A DNA stretch of 63,792 nt, filler included, from Basidioascus undulatus (taxonomy: Eukaryota): assembly GCA_000826855.1 (NCBI GenBank). It is 7 parts of 7 records of this genome, joined end to end, with 100 filler letters (N's around TTAATTAATTAA, not from the genome) between each part and the next. Parts side by side here need not be neighbours in the genome. Positions count along the whole stretch, not along the records: positions 18,312 to 27,352 come from JTLS01001308.1; 6 more parts are not named here. One strand, 5' to 3'. Below the pieces are notes generated by a model. It did no database searches. It saw nothing but the letters and a program-made list of their open reading frames with translations, and was not told the DNA's origin. The position numbers and the translations under genes are program-made. Positions 11,422 through 36,571 of this stretch are shown here, one piece after another; within the stretch, counting starts at the first letter, position 1, and each line of letters begins with the position of its first letter.

Positions 11422-11795
11422 CGAACCGGCCATAGCCGCTGCTGCCCACACCGCCTTGACATTCCCAACGCTACATGAGCACTGCCTTCCGTAAACAATC
11501 CCACCCACTCGGACTCACCGAACGGCATCGACTGGTTCAGGTAAAACACCCCAAAGTCGTTCACGCTGTCCCCTCCTCCCCCATCAGCCTCAATCCCCTC
11601 CTCCAACATCCCACACCCCATAAAACCGAACCACGCACCTGACCATCCCACACCTTAACTCCCTCACGACCCTCCTGCACTCCTCCCGGTCATTCCCAAA
11701 CACCGCCGCGCCGAGGCCGTAACGCGTGCCGTTGGCGAGGCGGATCGCGTGCTCGGTCGAGGTCGCGTGCATGACGGTCATTATGGGGGCGAATA
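11422..11795 (-). CDS. Internal/C-terminal fragment of an aldehyde dehydrogenase (Msc7-like)
   Basis: Three exons: FAPIMTVMHATSTEHAIRLANGTRYGLGAAVFG...CGM / SVNDFGVFYLNQSMPF / GGVGSSGYGRFG. These are ALDH C-terminal signature motifs. Confidence 0.8.
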
Positions 11796-11843
11796 CTGCG
11801 GGGTGGGGATTGGATGAGGGAGGGGGGGGGAGGGAAGACGAAC

Positions 11844-13049
11844 GAGATCCGGGTGCACCCCGTCCTCGACATTCCCCAATGCGAGGCTGAACTCGGTTGG
11901 GTAGGCGAGGTACGTATCCCACAGCATACGCTTTGCCCTTCATCCCCCCGCCACCCCACCGTCAGCCTCTTCCATCTAGCAGCATGGAGCAGGGAGGGAA
12001 AGCGGCGCACGAGAGGTACGGCACGTCGTAGTACGCCGCGACGGGGAGGTGGAGCCTGTCGTTCCCCGCGTAGCCGACGAAGCGCGCCCAGAGGGGCGAG
12101 AACGTGCCGAGGATGATCACCCCCGGCTGGGAGGGCAGCGTGAGGAGCGTGCGCAGGAGGGTCTCGAAGAATTGGGAGGTCTCGAGGTCGCTGGGGAGAA
12201 GGGGGAGGTAAGCGGGATGGGGAAAGAGTGGCCGGGGGGAAGACAAACTTGGAGAGGTCGTTCACGTCGAACCTGGGTGAAGACGGGGCTTAGCGACACG
12301 CCGTGAGGGAACAAGGGACGCAGCACGCACTCAACCAAGACGATGTCCACATCCTCCGGCAAGTGCGCCTCAGCGCACAGCCCAAAGTATCTGCTGTCGG
12401 TGGCTGTGCGGACCGCAGGTTGAGCGTGCGTGCGGCAGACATGCTGCAAAAAGACACACCTCCAATCGCCGCATTCACGAGCTTGTTCTCCGGATGGGGC
12501 AGCGTTACGTTCAGCCAGCGAAGGAAGCGCTGGGAGTATGTGTTCGGGTTGTAATTCAGTGAGCCGGTGTAACCTTCGGGCTGGCTGAGCTTATAGCCTT
12601 GGGAGACTGCACCCCTTCCAAATTGGTGAGTCTCGCCGAGATCGAGAAGGAAGACGAAGTTGCGACCTACCCGAACCGCCCAGCACCCCAACAGTCAAGC
12701 CCCTCCCCTCGCTGCCAGCCCGCCTCAATACGCTTCGCACGCGCTCGCCCGAGCTCTCCCAGTACCGCCCTCGTCGGAGCGTGTCAGCGCCGTACTTGCT
12801 CAGGAGGGGGTCGCCCTCGGCTGAGCAGAAGGGGAACGCGGGTGGGTCGGACGCGGGGGCGCCCGAGAAGGGATGCGCTGCGGCGGCGGACGCGGTGGAT
12901 AGTGAGGAGGAGGAGGGGGAGGCAGCGAAGGGTGGGAGTGGTACTGGTCGGAGGGAAGGCGAGGTAAGGTGCAGGAGGACGAGCGCGATGAGCGTGACTG
13001 GCAGGGCGCGGATCAGGAAAGCTGACAGCCGAAGGGACTGTACGGCCAT
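11844..13049 (-). CDS. CAP64-like SGNH/GDSL hydrolase-domain membrane protein, C-terminally truncated
   Basis: N-terminal TM anchor, then VGVLGGS/VSQG, LVNAAIGG/TDSRYFGLCAEAHLPEDVDIVLVE/FDVND, FETLLRTLLTLPSQPGVI, YYDVPYLS and catalytic-type DGVHP. Confidence 0.8.
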
Positions 13050-18311: not shown

Positions 18312-18530
18312 CGTCTCGCCAGGCTCGGTCTCGTCCTGCGGCGCGCCCTGTTGCGGCGGAGGGAGGGAGTGCGCTTGGGCGTCGGTCGAGCGGTGGCGTA
18401 GGCGGAGGGAGAAGACCAGCGCTGGGGCGCGGGCGGCAGGGAGGGTAGGGAGGAACGGCCTGGCTGCGGCGGTGCGGGGGACGGTGCGGAGCACGGTACG
18501 TGTTGCTGTGGTTCGGAAAATGGGCAACAT
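18312..18530 (-). CDS. N-terminus of a mitochondrial protein (presequence), cut by the contig end
   Basis: MLPIFRTTATRTVLRTVPRTAAARPFLPTLPAARAPALVFSLRLRHRST is Arg/Thr/Ala-rich with no acidic residues. Confidence 0.65.
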
Positions 18531-19969
18531 GGCGACGGATGTGGTGAAGGCAATAAGGAAGAAGTTGGCGAGTTGATGACCGAAGATGGGCAGCTTGTGT
18601 GGGAAAGCTTGACTAACTTGCGGCCGGAATGCTTGAGGACCTTCCCTTGCTTTCTTAGGTGGTGATGTCCGAGCGTGTTAGCTGAAATATTGAAAGACAA
18701 CGTATGGAACTGTACAGAGGTATCGTGAGGGAGTCGTCGTGAGTGGCTGGTATAGACGCAGCGGCTCGTTGCAAGCCTTGCGGCGACAGCACTTCTGTCA
18801 CTCGCCCGGCCTGTCTTTTGACCAGCAGGCATAGGCAATGTATTCGTAATTTAAGGCGACCGAAATGAGTCTGATAGAAGGGTTCGTACGTGTATAGCAT
18901 TTATCGGACCATGAAAGACTCAATGGGACAATGCCAGAGTTCGTTGTGCTACGTTTCTTGGTCTCCACACGTCGGCTGATCCTGCAATATCAAACGCAAG
19001 ATTTGTATGGGTCCTTAGAGACACTACAGAAGAAAATTTTCACTTCATTTCTGTTTCCTTACTTATCAGCCTCAACTCTTGCCCTGGCGCTTGGCCATCG
19101 AAACAGCTCAGAGAGCAAGCATGATTACCGAACTCGTCTTCCCATCCAGCCTGGGCTGCTGTAGGTATACGTACCACGGGAATTTTCTCACTTTGTCAGT
19201 TACGCAGGTTAAACTGATACTGTGCTCAGTGATGCAGGGTCGGAAAGGGCGTGTTGAAAGACATGTCGCTGACTCCTCGGCTTCTCGGACGTTTCGCAGT
19301 GCTTCTCCAATTATGAGTGCGCCTCAAAAAGCCTTAATAGTGCTATAGTGCTATCACTGAGCAAGTTAAAGTGCGGCTGTGATGGTTATTCAATCAGGCA
19401 CAGGAGCATCCCATGGCACAGCTTGAAGGCGACCCCACCCAACTTGCCTCCGCCATTCAGTAACACGGAAGCAGCGCTGGCTCTCCTGAATGCTGTAGTG
19501 CACACCAAAAAACTGCCCAGATATGTCAAGACCTGCCCAAAAACCTCATGGGATTTTCGCTTTCATATCCTGCAAGGTACTGACGGACCGACGTCTACGC
19601 AGACCGTGACAGGCGAGCCAGTCGGCGATGGCAACCGCATTCCCGAGCGACAGCCAGCCGTGTTTCGGTCCGACTGACGGCTCCTCATTGGGACTGACGA
19701 TACTTTCCTTAAATGCCGTCACCAGGGCAGTCTGCAATGAGCTGCCGCCTGGTATGCACCGTCACATGCGTGTCCCATGCCTCGGTTTCGACTTTACTGC
19801 CGCTTCGCGGGTGCGGTCGAAGTACAAAAGACAAAGACAGCTACCCTTCCTCTGGGCGGCCCGCTTGCTCTTCCCCCCTTCGCCACTGCCTACTCTCCTT
19901 GTTCAACATCACCGCTTATCGCCCACACCGCTCGCTCATCTGCCTCGGACACAGTCGATCTTACCCAGA

Positions 19970-20967
19970 ATGCCCGTTCCCTTCCCGCTTCTGCGGCTCG
20001 GTGTTTACGGTGAGCATTCGTCGTTCGACTGTGCAGTGAGAGAACCGGCCTCTGACCGGCGATGAGGCGGTCCCGCCTACTCAGGCCTGCTCGCAGTCTT
20101 CTCCCTGATTGTGCTGGGGATTGCGGGGCACATCACGTCCCTCACCTCCCCCTACTACTGTGAGGCACCGCTCGATGTCTCCCCACTCCCCGTCCTACAA
20201 ACTCCCGGTTAACACTCCTCGCGCGTCGAAACAGACCACAGTATCGCCTTCCTAATCTTCGTCTCTGTTTTTACCCTGGTCGTCATCGGCGTCTTGTGAG
20301 GCTTCGCCGATGCTCTCCAGGCTGACCGCCACTGAAAGCCCCTTGCCTTGGCCTACCCATCGCAGCGTGACCATCGACATCCTCCGCCGGGGCGCGCTGA
20401 CCAGCCGCGTCTGGGTCGAAATTATCTGGACAGGACTTCTCTGGGTCTTCTGGTTGAGTACGCCCGATCCGATTGGGAATGTCGATGGGAGGAGGACGCT
20501 CACCCCAACCCTGCCCATTTCACAGGCGGCGCAGCGGCCGTTAGCGCCCTCTTCCCCTATACCTCATGCTCCTCCGTGATCGTCATCGATGGGGTCCGGT
20601 ACCGCAGCAGCGCGGGCGAGAGCCTCTGTATGGAGGCGCAGGCGGGCAAGGCGTTCGCCTGGCTCGCCTGGATCCTTCGTGCGTTTGATCGTTTCTCTCT
20701 TTGCATCACACCAACCCACCATACGCCGGGTTCTCCCTCCCCTGACATCTTCCAAATCTCACAGTGTCTTTCATCTTCCCCTTCCTCCTCATCACCGCCT
20801 GCGTCCACGCGCTCGGCCACGGCCACACCCAAGTCTGGCAGGCGCAGACGTCTGAGTACCCCTGGTTCTCACGGCCGTCAGGCACTGCCACGGGGAAGCA
20901 TGCCACCGAGATGTCCCAACCCGGGACGGCGACGTCCGCATTCCGCCCACCTGCCGCGGAGGTATGA
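19970..20967 (+). CDS. MARVEL-domain four-TM membrane protein
   Basis: Six exons: LRLGVY/GLLAVFSLIVLGIAGH, IAFLIFVSVFTL, WVEIIWTGLLWVFWL/GGAA, CMEAQAGKAFAWLAWIL. Confidence 0.85.
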
Positions 20968-22030
20968 GGGGAAAGGGCATTTGGAGGAGGAGGTGTGGCC
21001 GAGGAGTTTCTGGTATTCCGCGCGATGATTCGCGAGTACTCTATGGTTCCTGTAATCTGGTTATATCAAACTTAAGCTTATGGCTGTACGGGTGGAAGTG
21101 GAAGTTTGGGCAGCTTTCGACCGCAGCTCAATGAACTGTGGCCTTGCTGGTGTCCTCAGGCTAGTGGTGGGCGGACTGACGTTTGACTCATGGCGGGATC
21201 AGATTATTTTATCAGAGGGTCCACTTTCACTCGTCTTTTGGTCGCAGAGATGCGTGTTTTCTGAGAGCTTAGAAGTCGTCAGACGCCGTAACGGTGGTTC
21301 AAAGATGACCTTTGCCTATCTCCGGTGTTCATCAGCCACACATCAATCGGGCTACTCAACTAGATTGATGCGAACATCAACATAATAAATATCGATATGG
21401 ATCTCATCGAGCTCACAACGTAAACGTGGGCATAACGTTCCCTGCTTAGTATGATCCACAGTCTCGCCTGCCGTGCGCCGCGACTGCAATGATGACGCGG
21501 ACGCTCCACACAGAGATTATGCAACAACTTCATATATGAGTGGTGTGTCCAGTATGTGTACAACAACAACGAGGAGGATGCGATTCCAAAGACGTGAAGG
21601 CGTTTGAGTGGGGATGCTGGTATCTATGCTGGCGTAGGTCATCAAATCATGCGAAGGTGCCGGTCTGGGGCAGCACGTCAGGGACTTGGAGAGACGAATA
21701 ATTAGACTGGATGAAGTCTAATCCGCAGAGCGGTGCGTACGAAGAGGCTGCAGCTGATGTTGACGGTCTTTTTCAACAATTGGTAGCACGAGCCGTGAAA
21801 GAGCAGCTACGCACCGGCTTGTTCGCATCCGCATAGACTCTATTAAACACAGCTCCGACCCCTATTCCAAAATTGAGCACGAAATGACCTCCTTCAGAGA
21901 GTATTTGTTCCTCACCTTCAAAGATGGAACACGGTTCCGCCCTCCAGAGAACCGCTCAGCGCCGCCTTCGGACCACCTGTTCGCATACCCCCGGGCTTCC
22001 AGATCAAACTCCTCCCCCGAATTTCCAACT

Positions 22031-22370
22031 TTACCTCATGCACCTCTCACCCTCAAGCACCCCGCCAACAGGCGCCCGAAACAACCGCGTTCCACGCGTC
22101 CTCCCTCCCTCGCACGCCCTTGAAGGCGCACTCGAACCTGCCGAACAGCCCCATCCAGACCCAAAGTTCCCGCCCACTACAGGAGCACAGGATTTAACCT
22201 CCCCGAAGGAGACGGTCCAGCGGTCGCCAGAGGGAGAGCTCCGGAACCCCTTGAGGCCGTGCCAGATCGTGCCCCCCACTACACCCATCGCGAACCCCCG
22301 CCGGCGTCGGAGAGGATCCTGTACGGGCACGGAGGGCGCGTGTGGTCGGTGCGGCTGGCCTAGGATCCAT
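22031..22370 (-). pseudogene. TIM17: Intronless, frameshifted TIM17 copy
   Basis: [18 protein letters not shown] / [25 protein letters not shown]...APVVGGNFG / [29 protein letters not shown] lie in shifting frames and follow the Tim17 consensus. Confidence 0.8.
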
Positions 22371-23301
22371 TGGCGGTGAGCAGGGGGGCTAGAAAAATTA
22401 GGATGAGGATGTCGGCGAACCGTCCTAAGGAGTGGCGGTAACTGAAGGCTGGGCGGGCGCGCGGCAGGGTGAGACCGCAGCGTACTCTTGTCTGATTTTT
22501 CCGGGTACTTTGCAGCATCGAGAAAGTGTGTATCGAAGTGGTCTGTCGCAGTCGAGTAAGATGCGCTCCAGCACGACAACAGCTAAAAGAGAACAATCCC
22601 GAGCCCGAGAGTCTGATATCAGGCAGTTCCGTTCGAAAGGTTTGCGGCTCCGTCGTCCACAACATTGGGGACACCAAGGACATCAGGCATTATTTGAACT
22701 GCCGCACAAAGAGGATACAAGTGAAACTGCAGGCGGCCATGCTCACAGCCGGTCACAGTCAGGCTTAATTGGCACTCTAGATTAACTAGTAATGACAACG
22801 ACGAGGGGCACCTCAGCAGAGTGTTCCTCAAATCTTTAGAACACTTTCTCTTCATTCATTCGCTCTCTAGGTGTCAATACTGCGCTGAGTGCGACTGCAG
22901 CGTGTCCGCCTAAAAGTTGAAAGCTAAACTGCAGTGGTAAACCACAGCCCCAGCAGAAGCCAAATTCAGCGAGTAGTCAGTCTCTACCCTTATCGACAGC
23001 CTTCTGGTCTGGAAGAGCAATGGGCGGTGAAAGTCACCCTGCTGGAATGACCAGACTTGCAGCTATGAGTTGATTCGTCACAGCGGAGAGGATTGGTCGG
23101 AGACCCAGGAAGGTGAATTTTCAGTTGAATTTCGCTGGGACCATGTCCCAGTAGCTCCGCTGCTGCCCGCCGGCGAGTAAAAAAAAAAAAAACACCATTG
23201 CTTCTTCCTCAAGTGCCTACCGCCCAATCGCACGGCACAACCACACTCCTTCCACCTAAAACAGATGCATTACCCGCCACCCTCCCAACCCCCTCCAAGC
23301 A

Positions 23302-23707
23302 CTAAACCACCTCCACCCACAGCTCCGCCTCGCTCCCGACGCCCGCCTGCGTGAGCGTCTCGTCGTCGTTGTCGAGCACGCGGCCGTTGAACGTCAGCCG
23401 CTGAGACTCGGGTGCGATCGCTCCATCCTCCCAGATCGCGCGCTTCACGTTGAGGACGGTCGTGCTGGGGAAGATGGGCAGCCAGAGGTCAACCGATGTC
23501 GTGCGGCGGATGCGGATCTGGAACTGCCCTGCGGAGGGGAGGCGAGGGGTAGGTCAGGTGGGAGAAGGGAAAAGGAAGGATTGAGCTCGTAAAGGGTGGT
23601 TATGTACCGCCTGAAGCGTCCTGCGAGGGAAAGAAAGGAAATATGAGCTGTGGGCGTTCAAGCAACGTCCAAGCAACAACACGCACCTTTGAGCTGCCAC
23701 ACCCCAT
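23302..23707 (-). CDS. 86-aa ubiquitin-fold protein with an N-terminal MGCGSSK acylation motif
   Basis: Exons 23707-23687, 23620-23608 and 23528-23302 total 261 nt with GT-AG introns. Protein: MGCGSSKDASGGQFQIRIRRTTSVDLWLPIFPSTTVLNVKRAIWEDGAIAPESQRLTFNGRVLDNDDETLTQAGVGSEAELWVEVV. Confidence 0.8.
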
Positions 23708-24933
23708 CTTCGCAAAAGCTATTTGTCCTCTTCCAGCAGTAAAGAGTGTCCTGGGTATATGCGTTCGCAGTATCCTCTGCGGAGTGCGTGGTACAAAGGA
23801 AAAAGGCGAGAGAATCAAGCAACGCGTATGGGCGCCGACGACGACGCTTGGATCGCCGCTTTCCAGATGGCGTCACGACGGCGGAGCGGGAGGGCACATT
23901 TGGCCTCGAGGGGGCGTACGAACATGCCACGAGGAGCTTGCTGTCTATAAGCAAGGTTTCGGGCTCGAAAATGGGCAACTGAATCGCGAATATAGTAGAT
24001 ACTTGTGAGAGGAGAGCTCGCTGCCGATGCGCTGCTCCACGACGTTCACGTGCGCCGGAGAGGGTCTTGATGGATCGCCAAGCATGGGCAGGACGAGCTG
24101 CGCAGCTCATCCTTCTTTCTCCAGAACTTCAACCTCCAGCTCCAAGCAGCGCAGAGAGTCACCAACATGTCGCTGTTGCGCAGCCTCACCCGCCCAAAGG
24201 GCACAGCGCGTTCCAAGGCGAATTCTACGCCCAGCGGGAATTCCGATCGAGAGCGGGCGATCCGGGGGTTCGAGGTGCGTCCGCCTTTCGGGCAGTTGAA
24301 CTGCTGAGAGCCTGACAGAAGCGGACATTCGCTGTTGTAGTTGGTATTGGAGAACCCGGACGTGCCTGAGCGAGATAAGAAACGTGCGAAGAGGGAGCTG
24401 AGAAAGCTCAAGCTGGTGGGTCGTTTCCGGTTTCCCTTCATCATCAGGATTCTCAAGCTGGACGGCTGTGGTTCTACAGGGACAATCTCTAGATCCTACG
24501 CGGGCGTTGAAAGCGCTGTTCTCGTGATCATGGATGCTATGCAACGCAGCCCTGCGATTCAGTTCGGAGCAGCCCAGTGGCCGGTGTCAGTATACCAGGC
24601 TCCCATCGCCAGTAGCAGACGATCCACCACTCTCCGAGATACCTAATGCTACAATTCACTTCGACGTAGTTTCCATGCCTTGTTTCCCTTCAACAAAGCG
24701 CAGATTCCTGGAAGGACTGCCAAACTGTGTAAACTGTGTGCGTAACCGCGGACCTTGCGCGGGTCTTCGCCCGGAGCGAAGAAGGCCCGAAGGCCCGCGC
24801 CCGCCAGACTCCAACAGCCGCTTCCCGCCTCCCTTCCCTCCTCTCTTATCACTTCTCCATCCCTACCTACGTACCCACACCCACACACTCGCTCACCCTA
24901 CCTTCTCCCCCATCCACTCTACCCACCCCCAAC

Positions 24934-26023
24934 ATGAACTTTACCTCTTTCCTCGTCCCATCCTCGCTCCTCTCGCTGTCCTCGATCCGCTCCGTGCTGA
25001 TCCGCCTCGAGGACACGATCATCTTCAGCCTCATCGAGCGCGCGCAGTTTGCCGCCAACGCGCGCATCTATGAGTGCGGGGCATTCAGGGAGGACCTGAA
25101 GGGGTGGGAGGGCAGCTGGCTAGACTGGTTTCTGAAGGAGACGGAGTCGTTCCACGGTGCGTGCCTACTTCCTCCTTGCTTCCTACACTTTGTGCTAAAA
25201 GAGAGCGTGCATCGACCCCCAGCCAAAGCGCGCCGCTACCAATCCCCGGACGAGTACCCCTTCACCCCTCTCTCCGAGCTCCCCGCGCCGGTCCTCCCGG
25301 CGCTGAGCTACCCGCCGCTCCTCCACGGCGCGAGCATCACCAACGTGAACGACAAGATTCTCGCGTTCTACATCCACGACATCGTCCCCGCCATTACTGC
25401 GCAGAACGCCGCCGCGGGCGCGGACGACGGCAACTACGGGAGCGCCGCGACAAGGGATGTTGAGGCGCTACAGGCGATTTCGAGGAGGATACACTATGGT
25501 GCGTGTGGGCTCTCCCTTTTCCTCCCCTCCCCCGTTTTCGATGAACACACTGGTCTAACAGCCTCGGGATGGGCGGCACCAGGCATGTTCGTATCCGAAT
25601 CCAAGTTCCTCGAGTCCCCCTCCTCCTTCATCCCGCACATCCTCTCCCCTAACCCTACCGCGCTCGAGGACCTCATCACCAAGCCGGCAGTCGAGGCCGC
25701 GCTGCTCGTGCGCCTCGAGAAGAAGGCGCGGCTGTACGGGCAGGACTTCGAGGCCGCTGCCGCCCCCTCTTGCGCCCCCAATGGGAAGGAAAAGGTGGAC
25801 GCGGAGACGGTCGTGCGGATGTACAGGGACTACGTTATTCCGCTTACGAAGGTGGTTGAGGTGCGTTGTGCGGACGCGGTGCTGGGTTGATGGTTGTCTG
25901 GGATATAGAAGAACTGACGCGGAGATTGGGTGGGGTGGGATGCGGGAACAGGTTGAGTACTTGTTGAAGCGCCTGGACGGCCTGAGCGAGGCGGAGATCG
26001 AGGAGCTGCAGCGCAGGGGTTAG
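24934..26023 (+). CDS. ARO7: Chorismate mutase (AroQ eukaryotic type)
   Basis: [84 protein letters not shown]. Introns 25157-25222, 25499-25582 and one starting at 25861. Confidence 0.96.
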
Positions 26024-26202
26024 GCGGGGGGACGCGCGGGATGCGTCCTCAGCTGAGATTATAGAACTATGTCGACCCGTAATGAACGGATATCTATTCC
26101 TGCGCAGATGCATAGCGAGGTGGCAGAGGGTATCAGGATGGGTATCGGTTGCGACAGGCTAGGCTACGACAACAAGCAGGACGATGTAGATCGTGGATGG
26201 TG

Positions 26203-27352
26203 TTAGGATGGTACAGGCACATTCAACCGATAATACGCGACGCCCTGTCCGCCGTCATATCAGCCGCGGCGCTGAGAGGAAGAAGACATAACGCGGCTCA
26301 CCCCCTCATTCGTCTTGGCGACCACCTTCTTCTGCACGAGAGCGATCAAGCACTTGTTCACGCGCGCCTGGGGCAGGTCCGGCATCTTTACGAGGTCTGG
26401 CACGCGCGCGCCCGCGGGCGGCGTGCTTGGGCTCTTGGAGAGCCGGATGAGTCCGTGCAGGACTTGGGACATCGCTGTGCGAAGGGCCTAGGTGGCGGGA
26501 CAGGGAATAAGAGGATGAGTGGAGGAGGCGAGGGTGAGGGGACGTACAGGCTGGGACCCCCGGTACTCGAGTGGGAGGGTGTCGATGATCCCTTCCACGA
26601 ACGTCTATCCTCCCACGCAGCTTGAGCGACCACCTCCCCACGCGGAAACAGCACCGACCAACGCACCTCCCGCTTCTTCTTCAGCGCCGGGTTGATCTTC
26701 CCCTTTGGCCTCGGCTTCGCGCCCGCGGCCGCTTTAGGCGCCGCCTTGGGCGTCTCCTCCTCGCCGAGGATGGTGTCGTTCTGCGTGCGGTACGTCATGT
26801 CACCCGCCGCGGTGGAGGGCGCGAGGGTCTGCTCAGAGGCCGAGGGCGGCGGGGGCGAGGCGGGAGGAAGAGGGACGAGACGGGTAGCGGCGGCGGCTGC
26901 TGCGGCTGGGGAGAGGGCAAGGGGTAAGAGGACGGGAAGGCAAGAGGGAGGGGAGGGAAGGGGAGATGGCGGACCGGCGAGCTCTTCCATCCTGTCGAAA
27001 CTTTGTTGGGTGGGCGCCTACCCTCTCACATGACGTCAGTATCTTTCGAAGGCAATAGAAGAACGACGAAGAGAAAGGGTGCACGCCACGCACCTCCGGC
27101 CACTCCACACAATAAGCATTCAGCCTCAGCCCCCAAACGAGCTCGGCAAAGCCTTCGTTGAACGTCCCCAGCGCCGTGTCGAGCTCGGCCATGGCATGCA
27201 CGTTGCTGTGGAGGGAGGCGAGCTCGTCCGCAAGGTCTGCGAGCAAGGGAGAGAGGTGCTCAAGTGGGGAGGGGGAGGTGCGATGTGAGCCGGCGGGGTG
27301 GGAGGAGGCGGAGGCGGAGAGGGAGAGCGAAGAGAGCGAGGAGCGTGGAAGG
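26203..27352 (-). CDS. DAM1: DASH/Dam1 complex subunit Dam1, 5' truncated
   Basis: LADLADELASLHSNVHAMAELDTALGTFNEGFAELVWGLRLNAYCVEWPE is the Dam1 core. C-terminal LPQARVNKCLIALVQKKVV. Confidence 0.85.
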
Positions 27353-27452
27353 NNNNNNNNNNNNNNNNNNNNNNNNNNNNNNNNNNNNNNNNNNNNTTAA
27401 TTAATTAANNNNNNNNNNNNNNNNNNNNNNNNNNNNNNNNNNNNNNNNNNNN
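27353..27452. other. Artificial contig linker
   Basis: N44-TTAATTAATTAA-N44. Confidence 0.97.
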
Positions 27453-34061: not shown

Positions 34062-36471
<2,410 letters not shown>

Positions 36472-36571
36472 NNNNNNNNNNNNNNNNNNNNNNNNNNNNN
36501 NNNNNNNNNNNNNNNTTAATTAATTAANNNNNNNNNNNNNNNNNNNNNNNNNNNNNNNNNNNNNNNNNNNN
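36472..36571. other. Artificial contig linker
   Basis: N44-TTAATTAATTAA-N44. Confidence 0.97.

Follow-up and report, generated by a model that had tools for sequence, protein, structure and literature searches.

A predicted intron-split gene of Basidioascus undulatus may encode an N-acylated ubiquitin-fold protein without a conjugation tail

The minus strand of Basidioascus undulatus DNA between positions 23707 and 23302 raises a specific question: does it encode a hidden ubiquitin-fold protein that is acylated at its N-terminus and has no di-glycine tail, as a sequence-only reading had proposed? Positions are counted along the window, meaning the whole stretch of DNA that was analysed (63,792 nucleotides, filler included), which joins seven parts of seven records of assembly GCA_000826855.1 and in which positions 18,312 to 27,352 come from JTLS01001308.1. 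The features described below point to a small, unannotated, intron-containing gene at 23707..23302, whose predicted splicing would yield a product of approximately 78–108 residues (86 in a three-exon model).

In the three-exon model, a first exon of 21 nt (23707..23687, minus strand; ATG GGG TGT GGC AGC TCA AAG, encoding MGCGSSK) ends at a GTGCGT donor. It is followed by a 66-nt intron 1 (23686..23621; GTGCGT...CTCGCAG, pyrimidine-rich at its 3′ end), a putative microexon of 13 nt (23620..23608; acceptor ...CTCGCAG, donor GTACAT), and a 79-nt intron 2 (23607..23529) in which a CTGAC branch motif lies approximately 25 nt 5′ of the acceptor CAG. The third exon (23528..23302) is 227 nt long and encodes 74 residues before the stop codon TAG at 23304..23302. 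The three exons sum to 261 nt (21 + 13 + 227), or 86 codons and a stop. Every sequence feature of the sequence-only reading was found at these positions on the minus strand, including a 21-nt first exon that reads exactly MGCGSSK, and its arithmetic of 261 nt and 86 codons was correct. It had also remarked that the ORF track displays the first exon alone, which agrees with the list of ATG-started ORFs, where a 35-aa ORF beginning MGCGSSK (23600..23707) is present and exon 3 is absent because it contains no ATG. For the same reason, an upstream exon is needed.

The ubiquitin-like exon and its surroundings

By profile (PF00240) and by predicted fold, exon 3 belongs to the ubiquitin family. Comparison of its translation with Pfam, the HMMER check that had been suggested for the ubiquitin clan, returned PF00240 at E = 4.3e-11 and 42.9 bits (cut-off 25.4). 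Five Pfam families were matched at E up to 1, and PF13881, which we take to be the profile of the membrane-anchored ubiquitin-fold (MUB) type, was not among them. A phmmer search against PDB sequences aligned exon-3 residues 3–69 to ubiquitin residues 2–67 with approximately 33–35% identity, and when this alignment is carried to the end, the last exon-3 residue corresponds to ubiquitin Arg72. The stop comes five residues past the Leu67 equivalent, so that the protein ends WVEVV and is then closed by TAG. The ubiquitin hallmarks and the WVEVV end reported earlier are both present, and the C-terminus has neither GG nor CAAX, as had been claimed; no C-terminal tail is found in exon 3, and the exon contains no Cys anywhere.

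Within the domain, exon 3 and ubiquitin have the core motif QRL.F.G..L in common. In the phmmer alignment, the surface residues Leu8, Ile44 and Val70 of ubiquitin are replaced by Thr, Thr and Glu, respectively, and His68 is replaced by Trp. A single one of the seven ubiquitin lysines is kept, namely the equivalent of Lys27.

Structure prediction with AF2, using an alignment that combined the query with 15 polyubiquitin-like representatives, produced a model with pLDDT 91.1 and pTM 0.79 and with elements in the order beta-beta-alpha-beta-beta-beta; prediction from the single sequence gave a poor model (pLDDT 45.5). When the aligned model was searched with Foldseek, ubiquitin chains were at the top, with 31–35% identity to the exon-3 model, and TM values of 0.85–0.93 were obtained for 42 of the 43 matches listed. 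Model and search both depend on an alignment whose rows are themselves ubiquitin repeats, so that the search outcome leans towards ubiquitin. Taken with the profile match, the predicted structure indicates that exon 3 is a complete ubiquitin-like beta-grasp domain that ends directly after strand beta-5.

Base composition marks the same boundaries. Exon 3 has a GC content of 0.65/0.43/0.91 at the three codon positions, and its GC3 of 0.91 can be compared with 0.78 and 0.88 in two long ORFs of the window, including that of chorismate mutase. A sliding GC3 scan along the minus strand gave values of 0.84–1.00 in approximately 23540–23300 alone; between 23300 and 22400 and between 23560 and 24000, nothing similar appeared. 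Between 23687 and 24110, GC content is flat across codon positions in all six frames (0.56–0.59), and no Pfam family was matched by the minus-strand ORFs upstream. The lack of coding signal 3′ of exon 3 indicates that its stop codon is terminal, and the lack of a GC3 signal on the 5′ side implies that any upstream coding exons are very short. Exon 3 therefore looks like a real, solitary and sharply bounded coding island.

The neighbouring genes were mapped by a Pfam scan of 150 of the 194 high-GC3 ORFs, which had been chosen from 661 ORFs of at least 60 aa. On the plus strand, a chorismate mutase gene at 24936–26010 aligns to solved structures (E = 8e-44); it has three introns, each starting GTGCGT, of which the first two are in frame and stop-free, so that the ORF reads through them. 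A small divergent gene lies closer, at 24168–24650 on the plus strand, with its ATG approximately 460 nt from that of the ubiquitin-like (Ubl) gene; no Pfam family matches this gene, which contains a basic segment, …PERDKKRAKRELRKLKL…, and a GTGCGT intron near 24277. Approximately 110 nt past the Ubl stop, in the presumed 3′ UTR, 14 consecutive A residues occupy 23179–23192 of the plus strand and read as T on the minus strand. Further minus-strand Pfam fragments correspond to aldehyde dehydrogenase (11593–11961), the DASH subunit Dam1 (26836–27396), cytochrome P450 (30555–31416) and an ATPase with two AAA domains (34447–36523). In the aldehyde dehydrogenase region a single ORF was matched, and this gene may be fragmentary or composed of very short exons. 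An Rfam scan of the window gave no match.

Downstream, 900 nt from the Ubl gene, lies a Tim17-family gene (22031–22400, minus strand) that is frameshifted. Tim17 residues 21–69 and 62–100 align in two different frames of contiguous DNA; the shift sits at a short G run, and at least one further G-run shift was seen upstream by eye. This gene is either a pseudogene or the site of local one-base assembly errors, and its frameshifts mean that sequence errors or gene decay close to the Ubl gene are possible.

Start codon, splicing and rival gene models

There is good evidence, if not proof, from the sequence that translation starts at MGCGSSK. This start is favoured by the convergence of its unique motif, its donor, its start context and its position as the nearest ATG. 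On the minus strand, the closest ATG upstream of exon 3 is 23707 and the next is 23925. Among the 1626 ATGs of the window (both strands), ATG 23707 is the only one that opens an MGCxx[ST] sequence, and a PROSITE-like N-myristoylation pattern follows 23 of them. Around this ATG, position −3 is A and position +4 is G. The GTGCGT donor is the commonest GT hexamer of the window (79 copies), and it was also the commonest donor hexamer in two GC3-based intron finders (10 of 119 and 4 of 37 candidates), both of which are crude and noisy in their output. Furthermore, introns placed by eye use this donor in all three cases in the chorismate mutase gene and in one case in the AAA-ATPase.

The N-myristoylation pattern of PROSITE PS00008 is M-G-{EDRKHPFYW}-x-x-[STAGCN]-{P}, and an MGCxxS(K) N-terminus directs myristoylation of Gly2 followed by palmitoylation of Cys3, as in Src-family kinases and G-alpha proteins such as yeast Gpa1. 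MGCGSSK conforms to the N-myristoylation rule (Gly2, a small residue at position 3, Ser6, Lys7 and no Pro) and offers Cys3 for palmitoylation. Its designation as a dual myristoylation and palmitoylation signal is thus in keeping with the pattern, as a prediction from the motif.

The route by which the start exon is joined to exon 3 is less constrained. Enumeration of single introns gave 65 in-frame, stop-free joins, and four in-frame routes with plausible signals lead from ATG 23707; all four retain MGCGSSK and the whole Ubl, and the linker is the sole part that varies. The proposed three-exon splicing is in frame, but its putative microexon is one among several in-frame solutions. The microexon would encode D-A-S-G together with position 1 of a Gly codon. 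With it, the frame is recovered at the first AG (23529–30) after the branch motif; judged by eye, no other internal exon above 3 nt would give two introns of at least 45 nt. Its GTACAT donor is weak, with A at +5, and occurs 19 times in the window against 19.5 expected. Intron 1 contains no CTRAY branch motif, the nearest sequence being CTCAT. Intron 1 is also in frame and stop-free, so its retention would be possible too, with a GC3 if coding of 0.50 compared with 0.91 in exon 3. Two more in-frame CAG acceptors follow the first at 5 and 11 nt and would start the exon at 23523 and 23517.

Three readings compete with the three-exon gene, and the mildest of them keeps the gene and its N-terminus. 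It is unlikely, though not negligibly so, that the 13-nt microexon is dispensed with and the product is MGCGSSK and the Ubl joined by a shorter or longer linker. Exon 1 could be spliced straight to an exon starting at 23523 or 23517; intron 1 could be retained to give a first exon of 100 nt; or one G could be missing from the assembly at the acceptor, since one extra G there would place exon 1 in frame with 23528 without a microexon. The enumeration shows that these models are in frame and stop-free, and a single intron of 163 nt would combine a strong donor (GTGCGT) with a perfect branch motif (CTGAC), dispensing with a microexon donor whose +5 base is A and whose count shows no enrichment. 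The missing-base version also draws on the Tim17-like gene 900 nt away, whose frameshifts at short G runs are one-base length differences nearby; however, no frameshift occurs in the chorismate mutase gene or in the AAA-ATPase stretch, so assembly errors are not general. A scan for GC3 frame switches as a sign of assembly frameshifts gave 226 candidates and proved too noisy to be informative. With direct splicing, the first AG past the branch point would need to be bypassed, retention would bring in the low GC3 of intron 1, and the 66- and 79-nt introns of the three-exon model agree with the 72–90 nt introns of the chorismate mutase gene.

The other two readings would remove the lipidation motif or the gene itself. 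That the Ubl exon is part of a longer gene or has another start, for instance in the ORF from ATG 24110, with MGCGSSK as a chance reading of another frame, appears quite improbable. A 150-aa ATG-started ORF does occupy 23658..24110, and a 424-nt stretch from ATG 24110 would join 23528 in frame through the GTGCGT donor of exon 1 to give approximately 216 aa, using the first AG and no microexon. However, the upstream ORF has nearly equal GC content at its three codon positions (0.56/0.56/0.58, whereas exon 3 has 0.65/0.43/0.91) and no Pfam match, and its 5′ part comes within approximately 60 nt of the start of the divergent plus-strand gene at 24168. In addition, there is a small likelihood that the lone MGCxx[ST] ATG of the window would adjoin the Ubl exon by chance. 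We consider it very improbable that the locus is a non-functional relic, that is, a decaying or never-expressed ubiquitin-like fragment beside the frameshifted Tim17-like gene. The state of that neighbour and the want of any homologue or annotation in the protein collection searched would suit such a relic, but the 74-codon ORF is intact and spans the whole fold, and its GC3 of 0.91 is at least as high as the 0.78 and 0.88 of the two long window ORFs. Moreover, the domain is about one-third identical to ubiquitin and yet has kept its core residues, a combination that implies long-term constraint rather than recent decay.

Relatives and comparison with known systems

The exon-3 translation had no match among annotated proteins of near and greater length, and aligning the exon-3 and exon-1 translations as a two-row query produced no candidate among proteins of 3–130 aa. 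The claim that the gene is hidden is borne out in that it is absent from the annotated protein collection searched; this absence is consistent with a hidden gene and equally with a genome that is missing from that collection. An exhaustive search of representatives returned 1575 matches at E ≤ 0.001, and the 150 of these that were listed are all multi-Ubl proteins with 4–16 matched stretches each. A protein atlas search yielded generic ubiquitin-like clusters and nothing else. In the annotated-protein searches and among the 150 listed of the 1575 representative matches, no relative closer than ubiquitin itself was found. A metagenome scan gave a single locus (L001), which is a chance match; the DNA there is AT-rich, and a helicase-like ORF of 859 aa lies on the opposite strand. 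Nothing was found in favour of the suggestion that the gene arose by exon shuffling.

The exon-3 Ubl and ubiquitin have the same beta-grasp fold over ubiquitin residues 2–72 (31–35% identity). However, ubiquitin continues into its 73–76 tail with GG, neither of which is present here, and it is made as a fusion precursor, whereas this Ubl carries an N-terminal lipidation motif instead. Conjugatable modifiers in general end in a flexible tail with Gly-Gly or a single Gly, in contrast to the WVEVV end of the Ubl. Without GG, the protein would not be a conjugatable modifier.

A functional parallel is offered by MUB/UBL3 proteins, which are likewise small, non-conjugatable ubiquitin folds on a flexible lipid tether (the tether being a prediction for the present protein). 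MUB is described as a protein of about 120 aa without GlyGly, whose prenylated CaaX drives association with the plasma membrane, and which binds the backside of E2 enzymes through a surface analogous to that of ubiquitin and a lap-bar loop (PMC4996978). The MUB/UBL3 anchor is a C-terminal prenyl group, whereas the predicted anchor here is N-terminal myristate and palmitate, and the absence of a CaaX box means that the protein is not a member of MUB/UBL3. The E2s bound by MUB/UBL3 are of the UBC4/5–UBE2D type. On the surface that MUB uses for this binding, the equivalents of Leu8, Ile44 and Val70 are polar in the present Ubl, and no MUB-specific lap-bar loop was identified. By analogy, the protein may work like MUB as a lipid-tethered, non-conjugatable Ubl that has its anchor at the other end.

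UBTD1 and UBTD2 (DC-UbP) similarly have a non-conjugated Ubl domain near the C-terminal end. They begin with MG..C motifs and may thus provide a precedent for N-terminal acylation of Ubl-domain proteins. Their N-terminal UBD of approximately 100 residues is missing here, the upstream DNA being without coding signal or Pfam match, and without a UBD domain the protein is not a UBTD member. The UBD and UbL of UBTD2 are placed at residues 27–126 and 152–225 of 234 (PMC4160250), and UBTD1 is described as a partner of UBE2D E2s (PMC8118655). Within the literature covered (papers outside subscription and a minority of supplements), neither an N-myristoylated ubiquitin-fold protein nor a paper on UBTD1/2 myristoylation was found, and UBTD1/2 are absent from the myristoylome supplements of PMC4200515 and PMC10696250.

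At the other end of the molecule, dually acylated proteins of the SH4 type, such as Src-family kinases and G-alpha proteins, have the same form of N-terminus, MGCxxS(K). Their cargo is a kinase or G-alpha, whereas here it would be a bare ubiquitin fold.

Predicted protein and its meaning

The reading that we regard as probable is that the locus encodes a dually N-acylated, membrane-tethered and non-conjugatable Ubl-domain protein, composed of an SH4-like MGCGSSK segment, a short flexible linker and one ubiquitin fold. After removal of the initiator Met, N-myristoyltransferase would acylate Gly2 co-translationally, and a DHHC palmitoyltransferase would next acylate Cys3. Membrane binding may also be aided by Lys7 and by the Arg-rich character of the first strand. 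The Ubl starts approximately ten residues past the predicted anchor and would be kept at the cytosolic face of the membrane, no more than a few nanometres away, where, lacking the tail and GG needed for conjugation, it would act as a membrane-tethered protein-interaction module.

The surface of the domain bears on what such a module could bind. The Thr/Thr/Glu patch and a Trp in place of His68 make it improbable that the partner is a canonical reader of the Ile44 patch. The sequence-only reading had suggested that E2s might be recruited or inhibited at membranes, a suggestion made purely by analogy, and the polar Ile44 patch weakens the E2-backside analogy with MUB. A bolder view, which is offered tentatively and which we think somewhat unlikely, is that the protein represents a previously undescribed class: a tail-less Ubl of approximately 86 residues, nearly free of lysine and tethered by myristate and palmitate, which would be an independent mirror of prenylated MUB/UBL3 and would recruit or block a partner in the ubiquitin system through a non-canonical surface.

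The architecture is unusual and coherent, and it amounts to a well-supported gene prediction, not a discovery. The locus illustrates how tiny first exons and microexons can leave small proteins unannotated and invisible to ATG-based ORF finders. If the gene is real and expressed, cells would have two distinct means of fixing a bare ubiquitin fold to membranes, the C-terminal prenyl group of MUB/UBL3 and the dual N-terminal acylation predicted here, and the protein would provide a minimal natural tool for finding what a membrane-fixed Ubl recruits.
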